From contig JBAZUV010000004.1 in assembly GCA_041661185.1 (NCBI GenBank), forward strand, positions 85,002 to 149,001: 64,000 nucleotides of DNA, in the 5' to 3' direction. Both the position numbers and the translations under genes were made by a program. The notes beneath the pieces were generated by a model. The model searched no databases and was not told the DNA's origin. It saw only the letters and a list, made by a program, of their open reading frames with translations. Within the stretch, counting starts at the first letter, position 1. Each line of letters begins with the position of its first letter. The DNA is from Elusimicrobiota bacterium (GTDB lineage: Bacteria; Elusimicrobiota; Elusimicrobia; UBA1565). Shown here in pieces: positions 48,351 to 50,829 of this stretch.

Positions 48351-48824
48351 ATGCGCACCCGCCCCATCCTTCTCTGCGGTCTGCTCTCGCTGACTGCGGC
48401 ATGCTCGAGCGGACCGGAACGCCGCAGGGACGCTCCCAGGCCCGCTTCGCCGCTGGCCAAGGCCGTGATCCGGACCGCGAAGACCTATCTCCCGGAAGAA
48501 GAGAAGGACCGTCCCAAGCCCAAGGACTGCTCGGACTTCGTGCAGAAGGTCTTCTTGGAGCACGGCTTCCGCCTGCCGCGGACCTCCGCGGCCATGTCCC
48601 GGCTGGGAGAGCCTCTGCGCTCCTCGCGAGGGCTGAGCATGGCGGATCTCGTGTTCTTCTCGGGCAAGAAGGGCGGCAAGGGCGTGGGACACGTGGGGAT
48701 CTACATCGGAAACGGGCTCTTCATCCATTACTCCAATGAGGAAGCCGGAGTGAGCATGGACACCCTCTATAACGACTATTACCGCCGCCGCTACCTCAAA
48801 GCCCGCCGCATCCTTCCGGACTGA
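48351..48824 (+). CDS. NlpC/P60 (C40 peptidase) family lipoprotein
   Basis: Lipobox LLSLTAACSS; DCSDFVQKVF...(Cys), HVGIYIGNGLFIHYS (His). Confidence 0.8.
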   Translation: MRTRPILLCGLLSLTAACSSGPERRRDAPRPASPLAKAVIRTAKTYLPEEEKDRPKPKDCSDFVQKVFLEHGFRLPRTSAAMSRLGEPLRSSRGLSMADLVFFSGKKGGKGVGHVGIYIGNGLFIHYSNEEAGVSMDTLYNDYYRRRYLKARRILPD

Positions 48825-48931
48825 GCAGGCCGCTCGCAGCGGGAAACTCCGCGAACTTTCTCGATGCAAAATCGGCCGTCCGCGCGATGATCTTCGGAAG
48901 GGACTTTTTGGAAACCTTGTGCTTTTTGAGC

Positions 48932-48960
48932 TTGAAGAATAAGGGAAGGCATGTTATAAT
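48932..48960 (+). promoter_or_regulatory. Near-consensus sigma70 promoter (-35 TTGAAG, 17 nt, -10 TATAAT) for the DUF4143 ATPase gene
   Basis: cttgaagaataagggaaggcatgttataat; AT-rich island; ATG 21 nt downstream of the -10. Confidence 0.55.
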
Positions 48961-48980
48961 TTTTGCATGATAGGTGAAAA

Positions 48981-50150
48981 ATGAGTCTCGATTTTGAACC
49001 GGTAGGGAGATATTTAAAGTCTCCGTCGTGGAGCTTCTTCCTGTTCGGACCCAGAGGAACCGGCAAATCCACTTGGACGCAGCTCACCTACCCCCATGCG
49101 TTGCGCATCGATCTTCTCATTCCGGACAGTTTCCGCCGCTATAGCGCCAAGCCGGAACGATTGATCGAGGTGCTGACCGGCAATCCCGATATACGGACGG
49201 TGATCGTAGATGAGGTGCAGAAAGCCCCCGCCCTTTTGCCCGTGATCCATGCCCTCATCGAAGAAAAGCGAGGCCTTTCCTTCGTCTTGACGGGTTCTAG
49301 TTCACGAAAGCTCAAGCGGACCGGCGCGGACCTCCTTGCGGGGCGGGCGGTCATGCGCACTCTGCATCCCTTCATGGCCGCGGAACTCGCTTCGCGATTC
49401 GATTTCGACCGCGCTCTGCGCCACGGACTTCTCCCGCTGGTCCATTACGCCGACGATCCGGAAGACGTCCTTGCGGCCTATGCCGCGTTGTATATGCGCG
49501 AAGAAGTCCAGATGGAGGGGCTGGTCCGCAACATCGGGGATTTCTCGCGCTTCCTGGAAGCGATCAGCTTCTCGCATGCGGGCGTCTTGAACCTCAACAA
49601 CGTCGCGCGCGAATGTGAAGTCGGCCGAAAAGTCGTCGAGGCCTACCTTGAGATCCTAGAAGACCTGCTCCTGTCTTTCCGCCTGCCTGTCTTCACCAAG
49701 CGCGCGAAAAGAGCGACTTCGGCGCATCCGAAGTTCTATCTCTTCGATGCGGGGATATTCAGATCCCTGCGCCCATGCGGACCGCTGGACAGGCCGGAGG
49801 AGATCGATGGCCCGGCGCTGGAAGGGTTGGTGGCCCAGCATCTGCGCGCATGGAACGCCTATTCCGGAGATCGCCACGACCTCGCTTTCTGGCGCACGCG
49901 TTCCGGGCTCGAAGTGGATTTCGTCCTTCATGGTCCGGAAGGCTTCTGGGTCCTGGAAGTCAAGAACAGCCGCCGCGTCCGCGACGAGGACCTTCGAGGC
50001 CTGCGCGCCTTCCGGGAAGATTACCCCGAAGCGAAAGCCCTTTTCATCTATCGCGGGGAAGAGCGCCTGCTCAGGAATGACATCCTCTGCCTGCCCTGCG
50101 AGGAATTCCTGCGCGGACTCGTCCCAGGAAATCCGCTGGAACGACCCTGA
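48981..50150 (+). CDS. AAA-family ATPase with DUF4143 C-terminal domain (COG1373-type)
   Basis: FLFGPRGTGKST Walker A, VIVDEVQKAP Walker B, conserved C-terminal DUF4143-like region; GC about 55%, below the window average. Confidence 0.85.
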   Translation: MSLDFEPVGRYLKSPSWSFFLFGPRGTGKSTWTQLTYPHALRIDLLIPDSFRRYSAKPERLIEVLTGNPDIRTVIVDEVQKAPALLPVIHALIEEKRGLSFVLTGSSSRKLKRTGADLLAGRAVMRTLHPFMAAELASRFDFDRALRHGLLPLVHYADDPEDVLAAYAALYMREEVQMEGLVRNIGDFSRFLEAISFSHAGVLNLNNVARECEVGRKVVEAYLEILEDLLLSFRLPVFTKRAKRATSAHPKFYLFDAGIFRSLRPCGPLDRPEEIDGPALEGLVAQHLRAWNAYSGDRHDLAFWRTRSGLEVDFVLHGPEGFWVLEVKNSRRVRDEDLRGLRAFREDYPEAKALFIYRGEERLLRNDILCLPCEEFLRGLVPGNPLERP

Positions 50151-50281
50151 CTTGTAGGCAACATAATGCCTGTAATCATCAGTTGGTTGGGAGACTTCCC
50201 CCCTCATCGAGGACATGCTCGCGCTATGATATCATGCCGGAAGCGGGTTTCGGGGAGTGAGGGGCTGTTTCGGGGCTCAGG

Positions 50282-50660
50282 TCAGCGCATCTCCTGCGCT
50301 GACTCCGGCGGAAGCGCGCGCATGCGCACGGCCCTGCGAAGCACGCGGCGGCACACCCTCTCGCGGATGTGGGAAATCTCCTCCTCGTCGGGAGGGTTCA
50401 TCGGCACAAAGCGCGCCGAGACTCGTCCCCAGCGGTCGCAGTGGGCCATGAAGGCCCCGTCGCTGACCACGGCGTGGAGGTGGACATGGAGATTGAGCGC
50501 ACTGCCGAAACGGAACGGGCGGCAGGATGTCCGCCAATGCGTGAGCGGCGGTGTACTCGGCGCGCTTGGCATCGCAGGAAGGACAAAGGCCCCGGCGCTT
50601 GCAGCTGAACGCCACGAAGAGGTCTTCCTTGCAGGAAGGGCACTGACATAGATACGAACC
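50282..50660 (-). mobile_element. IS91-family (HUH Y2 rolling-circle) transposase remnant, internally deleted and frameshifted
   Basis: N-terminal zinc-binding signature YLCQCPSCKEDLFVAFSCKRRGLCPSCDAKRAEYTAAHALADILPPVPFRQ in one frame and HUH-region LNLHVHLHAVVSDGAF in another, only about 150 nt apart (expected about 650 nt). Confidence 0.6.
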
Positions 50661-50829
50661 AGATCTAGGATAAGTTCCGCTACCTATCGAGAGTTGAGCT
50701 GCTTGCGCAAGCAACCCCCGGTCCACGGGCCTAATTCGGCATGGGCCCTCTATCCGCCCCCCTCTAGGCCGTTGAGCACGCGCCCAGGCAATCCCTTCCT
50801 TCTTATAATGCCTGCGCGAGGTACTTCTT

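Follow-up and report, generated by a model that had tools for sequence, protein, structure and literature searches.

Organization of the locus

The genes and features described here lie in a 64-kb stretch of DNA from an uncultured Elusimicrobiota genome that was analyzed as a whole (the window). They are given below in order of position.

47733..47816, minus strand: tRNA-Leu(UAA) gene (ARAGORN; Rfam, 58 bits)
48351..48824, plus strand: NlpC/P60 cell-wall peptidase gene with a lipoprotein-type signal, the open reading frame starting at 48315 or 48351 (Pfam PF00877, E 2.5e-20)
48825..50795, no strand: probable inserted segment of ~2 kb, in place of a 295-bp intergenic gap in the relative L171 (synteny against L171 and L174)
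48932..48960, plus strand: sigma-70-type promoter motif TTGAAG-17-TATAAT with an extended -10 TG (TGnTATAAT) (read from the sequence)
48972-48977, plus strand: AGGTGA ribosome-binding site, just ahead of the ATPase ATG
48981..50150, plus strand: intact gene for a 389-aa protein with an AAA_14 P-loop ATPase domain and a DUF4143 domain (Pfam AAA_14, E 1e-17; DUF4143, E 3.6e-30)
50282..50665, minus strand: IS91-family transposase pseudogene fragment of 384 bp (Pfam and three-frame translation)
50700..50713, no strand: perfect 14-nt palindrome TGCTTGCGCAAGCA, 35 bp past the 5' end of the IS91 fragment (read from the sequence)
50830..53943, plus strand: gene for a 1,037-aa tandem PD-(D/E)XK protein (the dual nuclease) with a signal peptide (Pfam PDDEXK_1, twice)

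Pfam searches, together with three-frame translation of the IS91 fragment, bear out the gene identifications of the initial annotation, which had recognized an NlpC/P60 lipoprotein gene, a DUF4143 AAA ATPase gene behind a near-consensus sigma70 promoter, and an IS91 relic whose zinc-ribbon and HUH motifs lie in different frames.

The NlpC/P60 and tandem nuclease genes flank a probable insertion

The PF00877 match in the NlpC/P60 protein spans profile positions 11-105 of 105, and the translation shows the motifs DCSDF and GHVGIY, so that the domain is present with its catalytic Cys and His residues. Translated from the ATG at 48351, the N terminus is MRTRPILLCGLLSLTAAC, from which the lipoprotein-type signal can be read directly. 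The GC content of the gene (0.64) and its GC3 (0.82) are typical of the window. The dual nuclease gene contains internal repeats 1,269 nt apart, and its product has 14 homologs, 41-50% identical, all of the named ones from Elusimicrobia.

The closest relative found, L171, has a MetG protein 74% identical to that of the window and was reached only via homologs of the dual nuclease; a MetG search of genome contigs gave a best relative at 64% identity, and a Psd search of metagenome contigs gave 62%. Gene order in L171 is tmk-holB-metG-pssA-psd-tRNA-Leu-(GlnRS)-NlpC/P60-dual nuclease-MBL-FKBP, as in the window, and the two are collinear over ~15 kb to either side, including p307 and p298 beyond the nuclease. 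No remnant of the GlnRS gene was seen at 47.8-48.35 kb or elsewhere in the window. Both L171 and a second relative, L174, which has the same flanking pair, encode an NlpC/P60 ortholog (63% identical) immediately upstream of the dual nuclease. The flanking genes are thus kept in L171 and L174, and no similarity to the ATPase or to IS91 was detected at the L171-L174 loci. Only 295 bp separate the NlpC/P60 gene from the dual nuclease in L171, and in L174 the space between them holds an HTH open reading frame and a 150-aa open reading frame, both unrelated to the ATPase or IS91. Since the NlpC/P60 and nuclease genes are adjacent and in the same order in L171, both are lineage genes, and only ~48825-50795, with the ATPase cassette and IS91 fragment inside it, appears to be inserted. 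Judged by this synteny, the NlpC/P60 gene is a lineage (core) gene that borders the insertion on the left, and the tandem nuclease is a lineage gene at its right flank, outside the acquired DNA.

The edges of the insertion were placed by comparing the intergenic sequences of the window and L171 by eye. The right limit is approximate: a -10 box, TATAAT, at 50804-50809 and the sequence GCGAGGTAC before the nuclease start are common to the window and L171. No direct or inverted repeats of at least 9 nt flank the insertion, against ~1.2 expected by chance. The comparison covers two loci, L171 and L174, both distant, with no relative found closer than 74% MetG identity, so that the edges given for the insertion are approximate.

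An intact ATPase-nuclease gene behind a promoter-like motif

The AAA_14 domain (PF13173) of the ATPase occupies residues 20-136 and DUF4143 (PF13635) occupies residues 176-329. The protein has a Walker A motif (GPRGTGKS), a Walker B motif (VIVDE), and, toward its C terminus, the PD-(D/E)XK nuclease motif EVD...EVK, in keeping with the placement of DUF4143 in the PD-(D/E)XK superfamily (PMC3424549); a weak NERD match was also obtained. Across 25 homologs, no variation was seen at GPRGTGK (G23-K29), D77, E311, D313, E326, V327, or K328. The promoter motif upstream of the gene is the sole match of at least 10 of 12 positions with a perfect TATAAT and the TG on both strands of the whole window.

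The AlphaFold model of the ATPase is mediocre (mean pLDDT 64), its middle part being disordered. A Foldseek search of the PDB with this model returned no match at E <=0.001, yielding only generic AAA+ proteins (RuvB, DnaA, RFC), weak PD-(D/E)XK matches, and 1xmx, and no sequence match to the ATPase was found in the PDB. The structural results were left out of the reading of mechanism that follows. Judging from domains and invariant residues, the protein would bind to or assemble on nucleic acid in a nucleotide-dependent manner, after which the C-terminal nuclease would cleave.

The IS91 relic is a pseudogene fragment

The relic was identified by Pfam, NCBIfam, and protein searches. On the minus strand, it matches Zn_Tnp_IS91 (PF14319; E 1.1e-9, profile positions 33-86 of 90) and Y2_Tnp (PF04986; E 8.3e-8, profile positions 8-75 of 183), the latter match ending at a stop at 50282. 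Both matches are above the Pfam cutoff, and the relic shares with IS91/ISCR transposases the zinc-binding N-terminal domain, whose zinc ribbon has both of its CxxC pairs, as well as the motifs VPFRQ and LHVHLH (HUH). It differs from them in that it is frame shifted and ~384 bp long, against an expected gene of ~1.2 kb or longer, and in that its best NCBIfam matches, ISCR clade Ia and IS91, score 60 and 35 bits where the cutoffs are 925 and 125. Although the HUH motif remains, no single continuous transposase open reading frame carries it together with the two catalytic tyrosines. The sequence is cut at both ends, lacking the N-terminal region and the region of the catalytic tyrosine. What is left is a fragment of a pseudogene rather than an element, and the 96-aa "transposase" CDS of public records is a pseudogene fragment.

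The zinc ribbon is encoded from ~50665 to 50502 in one frame and the HUH motif from 50512 to 50282 in another. The two parts meet at an 11-nt overlap, CGTTTCGGCAG, and both motifs read through this same CGTTTCGGCAG. In intact IS91-like homologs (P0002-P0004), 51 aa lie between the ...YRQ and RFGS... motifs that the relic retains, and therefore ~160 bp have been lost inside it, in place of the initial annotation's statement that the motifs are about 500 bp too close.

IS91 ends bear subterminal palindromes, with a CTTG/GTTC target beside oriIS (PMC13181058). At the relic, which belongs to a subfamily with no reference ends, no recognizable oriIS or terIS was seen, only the 14-nt palindrome, which could be a leftover subterminal IS91 palindrome or an operator.

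Probable origin of the insertion

The gene order points to ~2 kb of foreign DNA with two components, which was probably inserted between the NlpC/P60 and tandem nuclease genes; as part of the same overall explanation, and with the same confidence, these two genes would be old neighbors in the lineage. The data support classing the ATPase gene, like the IS91 fragment, as accessory DNA. The insertion is an ordinary small one and not a larger tRNA-linked island. The ATPase cassette is complete and consists of a single gene with a strong sigma-70-like promoter and a ribosome-binding site. The IS91 relic is inert: the 5' part and the 3' part with the catalytic tyrosines are gone, leaving it unable to transpose, and a microhomology deletion of ~160 bp between two 11-nt direct repeats would have put the zinc ribbon and HUH motif out of frame. 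The two components most likely arrived separately, in a gap tolerant of insertions, since they differ in GC content (0.60 versus 0.66) and show no linkage elsewhere. In L174, other small open reading frames occupy the same spot.

It is conceivable, and in our view unlikely, that an IS91 element moved the adjoining ATPase gene, as a one-ended rolling-circle or ISCR-like unit, and subsequently decayed. The two are immediate neighbors, 131 bp apart and convergent; both are missing from L171 and L174; IS91-like Zn-domain homologs were found in Elusimicrobia (P0011, P0018); and IS91-family elements mobilize flanking DNA at a frequency of 1-14% (PMC13181058). Co-arrival is harder to square with the GC difference, with the failure to recognize oriIS or terIS sequence at the locus, and with the loci of the six close ATPase homologs examined, none of which has an IS91-like gene nearby. 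Furthermore, the relic has the ATPase gene on its 3' (oriIS) side, whereas read-through past terIS takes DNA from the 5' side (PMC13181058).

Still less probable, we believe, is an ancestral ATPase gene, with or without IS91, that lay between the NlpC/P60 and nuclease genes and was lost independently in L171 and L174. The composition of the gene is near that of the host and the comparison involves just two loci, both distant, but this history requires two independent clean losses and sits poorly with the unrelated open reading frames at the same spot in L174 and with an ATPase family whose members are scattered across unrelated contexts and are more alike across phyla than MetG.

Distribution of the ATPase family and the defense label

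The six closest ATPase homologs examined, 75-79% identical and encoded in other Elusimicrobia metagenome-assembled genomes, lie in six different neighborhoods, and in these loci homology at the DNA level around the ATPase gene is limited to the open reading frame. In three of the six relatives, the GC content of the gene is 0.07-0.13 under that of its locus. Outside the phylum, the ATPase is 64-69% identical to proteins of Aminicenantes, Planctomycetota, and Syntrophus, whereas MetG identity there does not exceed 51%. Together, these comparisons support a family that is mobile. Because the genes of this subfamily are single and occur in unrelated neighborhoods, they would have spread as single genes via horizontal transfer and recombination.

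The ATPase matches the PADLOC profiles for PDC-S01 (PDLC04790, E 2.1e-52; PDLC04789, E 6.2e-35 over residues 19-358). It shares with PDC-S01 (AAA_14 plus DUF4143; COG1373, "predicted AAA+ ATPase") the two-domain architecture and a full-length HMM match, keeps intact Walker A/B and PD-(D/E)XK motifs, and stands alone as a single gene, a typical trait of the candidates found by embedding; it lies neither within nor beside any recognized defense system. PDC-S01 is one of 145 candidates put forward without experimental test (bioRxiv 10.1101/2024.01.29.577857), and the one representative challenged with T7, T5, and T4 in E. coli B did not belong to the four systems giving protection (bioRxiv 10.1101/2024.09.26.614923). 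It has nevertheless been called the fourth most common "defense" system in prokaryotes (PMC12988326). In the literature on PDC-S01, we found no family member with a demonstrated anti-phage effect, and validation is pending. PDC-S01 is thus a very common, unvalidated family, for whose ATPases "defense" is a label and not an established function. The mechanism outlined above would be compatible with a role against phages or plasmids, as has been proposed for PDC-S01, and from its sequence we infer that the window ATPase is a phage-defense candidate.

A more speculative idea, to which we give little credence, is that the solitary AAA_14-DUF4143 gene is itself a self-propagating element whose PD-(D/E)XK nuclease, supported by the ATPase, would cleave empty sites much as a homing endonuclease does. 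If true, this could explain how lone copies of near-identical length, with their own promoters and without transposase, integrase, or flanking repeats, came to occupy seven unrelated Elusimicrobiota gaps, and why so frequent a "defense candidate" family has shown no protection so far.

Composition and the tRNA-Leu gene

GC content averages 0.630 (sd 0.024) in the window and is 0.605 in the interval 48351-50700, which places this interval at the 16th percentile. The ATPase gene, at 0.599, is likewise at about the 16th percentile, and the IS91 relic has a GC content of 0.656. GC3 of the ATPase gene is 0.71 (z -0.9), its Karlin codon bias of 0.315 is inside the window range, and tetranucleotide distance in 2-kb windows across the region gives z values of -0.4 to +0.4. 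The local GC minimum comes mostly from noncoding sequence at 48000-48207 (0.49) and 48825-48980 (0.48). Composition, codon usage, and k-mer usage are not deviant and give no independent support for an insertion here; the description of the ATPase gene and promoter region as clearly AT-richer was overstated. The initial annotation had staked its reading on deviant GC and codon usage and on a match to IS91: GC and codon usage proved ordinary, and the IS91 match exists in Pfam.

The tRNA-Leu gene closes a conserved metG-pssA-psd-tRNA-Leu block, and the psd-tRNA-Leu linkage was found again in many related loci. The 3' end of the gene, at 47733, faces psd and its 5' side is toward the patch; for this reason, tRNA-Leu is not the integration site of the patch. 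As in tRNA-linked islands, accessory genes are found with a tRNA gene no more than 1.1 kb away. Unlike in such islands, the patch sits at the 5' side of the tRNA, which is the wrong one, no integrase domain was found in 47.8-54.5 kb, no att repeat, repeat of tRNA sequence, or flanking repeat was found, and composition does not deviate; neither the combination of integrase, tRNA 3' end, and repeat nor a deviating composition was seen. Most genes of the proposed "island" are conserved neighbors in relatives, and the part that L171 and L174 lack at this site is confined to 48825 to ~50795.

An island associated with tRNA-Leu and running from the NlpC/P60 gene through the ATPase gene and IS91 relic, possibly through the dual nuclease, is therefore the least credible reading of all and very improbable: synteny with more distant relatives does end at the tRNA, GC dips mildly at 48-49.5 kb, and an IS fragment and a mobile-type ATPase gene are present, but the NlpC/P60, dual nuclease, MBL, FKBP, p307, and p298 genes are collinear in L171, the tRNA 3' end faces psd and not the patch, the stretch from 47.8 to 54.5 kb offers no integrase and no tRNA-sequence or flanking repeat, and GC, codon bias, and 4-mer usage are unexceptional. 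The initial annotation had taken the tRNA, now seen to be part of a conserved block, as the mark of a horizontally acquired segment whose boundary might extend through the dual nuclease, a gene that is syntenic in L171 and L174. Acquisition is retained for the ATPase gene and IS91 fragment, and abandoned for the syntenic NlpC/P60 gene. The synteny comparison that had been suggested favored an insertion for ~48825-50795 and not for the flanking genes.

The locus adds one solitary PDC-S01-type ATPase-nuclease and one decayed IS91 fragment to a poorly sampled phylum, and in itself matters little. The NlpC/P60 and tandem nuclease genes should not be counted as island cargo. An incoming gene whose GC content matches that of the host escapes a test by composition, and the question is then decided by synteny. 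For testing PDC-S01, single genes inserted cleanly with their native promoters, as here, are convenient constructs.

As a separate observation, a conserved structured noncoding element of ~156 nt lies beside tRNA-Leu, at 47844-47999. In Rfam searches over the region only the tRNA was matched, leaving the element without an Rfam family; "miRNA" matches at 48221-48291 were rejected as merely a long hairpin. When 0.9 Mb of related loci were searched with a covariance model of the conserved element (R1), no additional copies turned up, and two conserved cores gave no match in viral contigs. This structured element next to tRNA-Leu may merit a separate look.

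Extent of the inserted segment

The region 48351-50700 had been described in the initial annotation as a horizontally acquired patch. As an observation this was largely right: every gene that it listed has a Pfam domain match, including an IS91 transposase relic whose zinc-ribbon and HUH domains (Zn_Tnp_IS91 and Y2_Tnp) lie in different frames, and the promoter proposed upstream of the ATPase gene was found, with a TG extension, as the sole match of such quality within the window. The acquired nature of the segment also stands, in that the ATPase gene and IS91 fragment are absent from relatives, but its extent and the arguments offered for it do not.

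Features at the locus (window coordinates)
47733-47816 (-), tRNA-Leu(UAA)
48315/48351-48824 (+), NlpC/P60 protein (Pfam)
48932-48960, promoter motif TTGAAG-17-TATAAT with TG extension (motif search)
48981-50150 (+), AAA_14 + DUF4143 ATPase (Pfam)
approximately 50282-50665 (-), Zn_Tnp_IS91 and Y2_Tnp domains in two different frames (Pfam)
50830-53943 (+), dual nuclease with two PDDEXK_1 domains (Pfam)

The order metG-pssA-psd-tRNA-Leu is common to the window and loci L004, L005, L006, L008, and L009 from relatives, and gene order diverges after the tRNA. Taken alone, this divergence in more distant relatives could have suggested an island beginning at the tRNA. A closer relative, L171 (JGI Ga0376277_0000332), was reached via homologs of the dual nuclease, and its proteins are 74% (MetG), 83% (PssA), 63% (NlpC/P60), 50% (nuclease), and 76% (p298) identical to those of the window. 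L171 is collinear with the window across the entire neighbourhood, with the order tmk, holB, metG, pssA, psd, tRNA-Leu(UAA), GlnRS-type synthetase, NlpC/P60, dual nuclease, MBL, FKBP, and two more shared genes, and the GlnRS-NlpC/P60-nuclease order is present too in L174 (GCA_003450735.1). The suggestion that NlpC/P60 is acquired DNA did not hold, as it occupies the same position beside the nuclease in both relatives, nor does the nuclease belong to the acquired segment, being syntenic in both and having named homologs only in Elusimicrobia. The distance between these two genes is 2005 bp in the window versus 295 bp in L171, and no similarity to the ATPase or the IS91 fragment was found at the L171 or L174 locus. 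Immediately upstream of the nuclease start the window and L171 are alike (TATAAT versus TATACT, then GCGAGGTAC), and this common sequence puts the right boundary of the additional DNA near 50795. Judged from this shared sequence and from synteny with L171 and L174, the accessory segment comprises only approximately 48825-50795, and NlpC/P60 and the nuclease are resident genes. It is a small, ordinary insertion: a very common candidate defence gene beside a decayed IS fragment, between two lineage genes. The corresponding gap in L174 (8013-8793, minus strand) holds a 116-amino-acid ORF with weak HTH (Xre-like) matches and a 150-amino-acid ORF, and the gap seems to take different cargo in different lineages.

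The dual nuclease (1037 amino acids) consists of an internal tandem duplication whose DNA repeats are spaced by 1269 nt. A PD-(D/E)XK domain is present in both halves, and the N terminus is signal-peptide-like, as it is in L171. Only 14 homologs were found among 5.8 billion proteins, at 41 to 50% identity. The protein is a lineage-specific double nuclease that is apparently exported.

Composition and the tRNA-Leu gene

The description of the patch as low in GC is weak. The GC content of 48351-50700 (0.605) falls at the 16th percentile of equal-size windows, and that of the ATPase gene (0.599) at roughly the same percentile. Relative to 56 ORFs taken as a crude reference set, the ATPase gene is unremarkable in GC3 (0.71; z, -0.9) and in its codon bias (0.315), and the NlpC/P60 and nuclease genes are typical. 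Tetranucleotide distance across the region ranges only from z -0.4 to +0.4, and the local GC dip is due mainly to two noncoding stretches (GC approximately 0.48 to 0.49). The tetranucleotide outliers of the window are 15000-18500 (z up to 4.4) and 38000-42000 (z up to 2.6), both more deviant in composition than the ATPase/IS91 segment; 38000-42000, where CarboxypepD_reg and N_methyl (pilin-like) proteins are encoded, also has the lowest GC (0.55 to 0.58).

The tRNA had also been taken to mark an island. We rejected tRNA-Leu as an attachment site: its 3' end points towards psd and its 5' side towards the patch, psd-tRNA-Leu is a widely conserved pair, no integrase domain was detected within 47.8 to 54.5 kb, and neither repeats of the tRNA sequence nor any repeat of at least 9 nt flanking the insert were found.

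The ATPase is a candidate defence protein

The ATPase ATG is preceded, 4 nt upstream, by AGGTGA. The Walker A (GPRGTGKS), Walker B (VIVDE), and C-terminal EVD...EVK motifs are invariant across 25 aligned homologs. DUF4143 is catalogued under the PD-(D/E)XK superfamily (PMC3424549), and from its domains the protein would bind nucleic acid in a nucleotide-dependent manner and then cleave it; the structure model (pLDDT, 64) and a fold search gave nothing firm. The protein matches the PADLOC phage-defence candidate PDC-S01 (E, 2.1e-52). PDCs are a set of 145 untested candidates, derived from genes that lie inside known systems (bioRxiv 10.1101/2024.01.29.577857). PDC-S01 has been described as fourth in frequency among the "defences" of prokaryotes, validation pending (PMC12988326), and one representative, assayed in E. 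coli B, did not figure among the systems protective against T7, T5, or T4 (bioRxiv 10.1101/2024.09.26.614923).

More than 8000 homologs passed E 1e-20, the best of them 75 to 79% identical and in Elusimicrobia metagenome-assembled genomes. When species-representative genomes were scanned with MetG, Elusimicrobia metagenome-assembled genomes likewise gave the best matches, and because these are only 51 to 64% identical, with other phyla at no more than 51%, the lineage is poorly sampled. The ATPase is 64 to 69% identical to named Aminicenantes, Planctomycetota, and Syntrophus proteins, well above cross-phylum MetG. A metagenome contig of 417 kb (ENA ERZ27249449) and two short Logan contigs, assembled from other sequencing runs, carry identical DNA for the ATPase, and NCBI lists the proteins under "Elusimicrobiota bacterium". 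Six close homologs lie in six unrelated neighbourhoods, some adjoining toxin-antitoxin genes or a DUF4143 paralog and others between housekeeping genes, and DNA similarity among these loci ends at the ORF ends. At three of the six loci the gene is 0.07 to 0.13 lower in GC than its surroundings, and the family therefore looks foreign in GC-richer hosts; the GC of the window host happens to be near that of the ATPase gene itself.

The IS91 fragment is a dead remnant

The fragment, publicly annotated as a 96-amino-acid "transposase", is missing the first third of the Zn domain, all that lies upstream of it, and Y2_Tnp positions 76 to 183, which hold the catalytic tyrosines (Pfam), and its NCBIfam scores are far under the family cutoffs. 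It is a dead remnant. The closest Zn-domain homologs, Elusimicrobia proteins among them, are 66 to 67% identical. In minus-strand translation, ...GSYLCQCPSCKEDLFVAFSCKRRGLCPSCDAKRAEYTAAHALADILPPVPFRQ is read in one frame, which ends at 50502, and RFGSALNLHVHLHAVVSDG... in the other, between 50512 and a stop at 50282. In the intact IS91-like relatives P0002, P0003, and P0004, 51 residues separate ...YRQ from RFGS...; in the window both motifs overlap on one 11-nt stretch, CGTTTCGGCAG, which is translated as (P)FRQ in one frame and as RFGS in the second. Exactly this junction and frame shift would result if approximately 164 bp were deleted between two CGTTTCGGCAG-type repeats, and we infer such a repeat-mediated event. 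IS91 ends carry subterminal palindromes (PMC13181058), and an element end may have left behind the 14-nt palindrome at 50700-50713.

Adjacency of the ATPase gene to this fragment, and the absence of both from relatives, would fit their joint arrival by IS91 one-ended transposition. However, none of the six loci of ATPase homologs has an IS91-like gene nearby, GC is unequal (0.60 for the ATPase versus 0.66 for the fragment), and the ATPase gene is located 3' of the relic, whereas DNA from the 5' side is what read-through past terIS mobilises (PMC13181058). We regard joint arrival as improbable.

Noncoding elements and other variable sites

Directly 5' of tRNA-Leu(UAA) lies a noncoding element of approximately 156 nt (47844-47999), 79% identical to its L171 counterpart (6155-6311) and the only intergenic DNA that aligns between the two genomes. 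RNAalifold predicted approximately 45 pairs in several hairpins, with three to four compensatory double changes, and the alignment contains a paired 1-nt insertion, read as helix lengthening. Rfam gave no match to the element up to E 10, a covariance model (R1) run on 0.9 Mb of related loci yielded no additional copy, and two conserved cores of the element had no match in viral contigs. The element is possibly an undescribed structured RNA or a tRNA/psd leader. A 100-nt imperfect hairpin (48208-48307; RNA MFE, -82 kcal/mol; z, -6.7) is situated 45 nt before the start codon of NlpC/P60. Two independent assemblies, the Logan contigs of runs SRR6484324 and SRR18595301, both start at 48254, in the hairpin loop, and apart from this match the window exactly, which suggests an assembly-graph branch (a repeat copy elsewhere or a left-side strain-level variant) rather than chance.

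Immediately before NlpC/P60, L171 (6536-8254) and L174 (5850-7535) carry the gene of a class I synthetase of GlnRS type, with tRNA-synt_1c and both C-terminal domains. The gene is missing from the window, with no remnant detectable at 47817-48350 or anywhere else in the window, and a purine-rich stretch (48000-48207; GC, 0.49) fills part of its position. Downstream of the nuclease, a 201-amino-acid Lys/Pro/Ala/Glu-rich low-complexity protein (53943-54548, plus strand) is encoded in the reverse orientation in L171 (13211-13675, minus strand), which indicates a small local inversion between the two genomes.

A second small variable spot, not listed in the initial annotation, lies between metG and pssA, where a toxin-antitoxin-like pair is inserted (45461-46215, minus strand; GC, 0.58): a 161-amino-acid nucleotidyltransferase with weak AbiEii/NTP_transf matches and an overlapping upstream 90-amino-acid ORF. 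This gap contains nothing in L005 and L006 and an M48 peptidase in L171. The window contains three copies, versus none expected, of a GC-rich, REP-like repeat, CGCCCCGGCGGAAGCCGGGGTCCAG (45339-45450; 5299-5323, plus strand; 11083-11107, minus strand), and one copy lies within an inverted repeat with 31-nt arms just downstream of metG.
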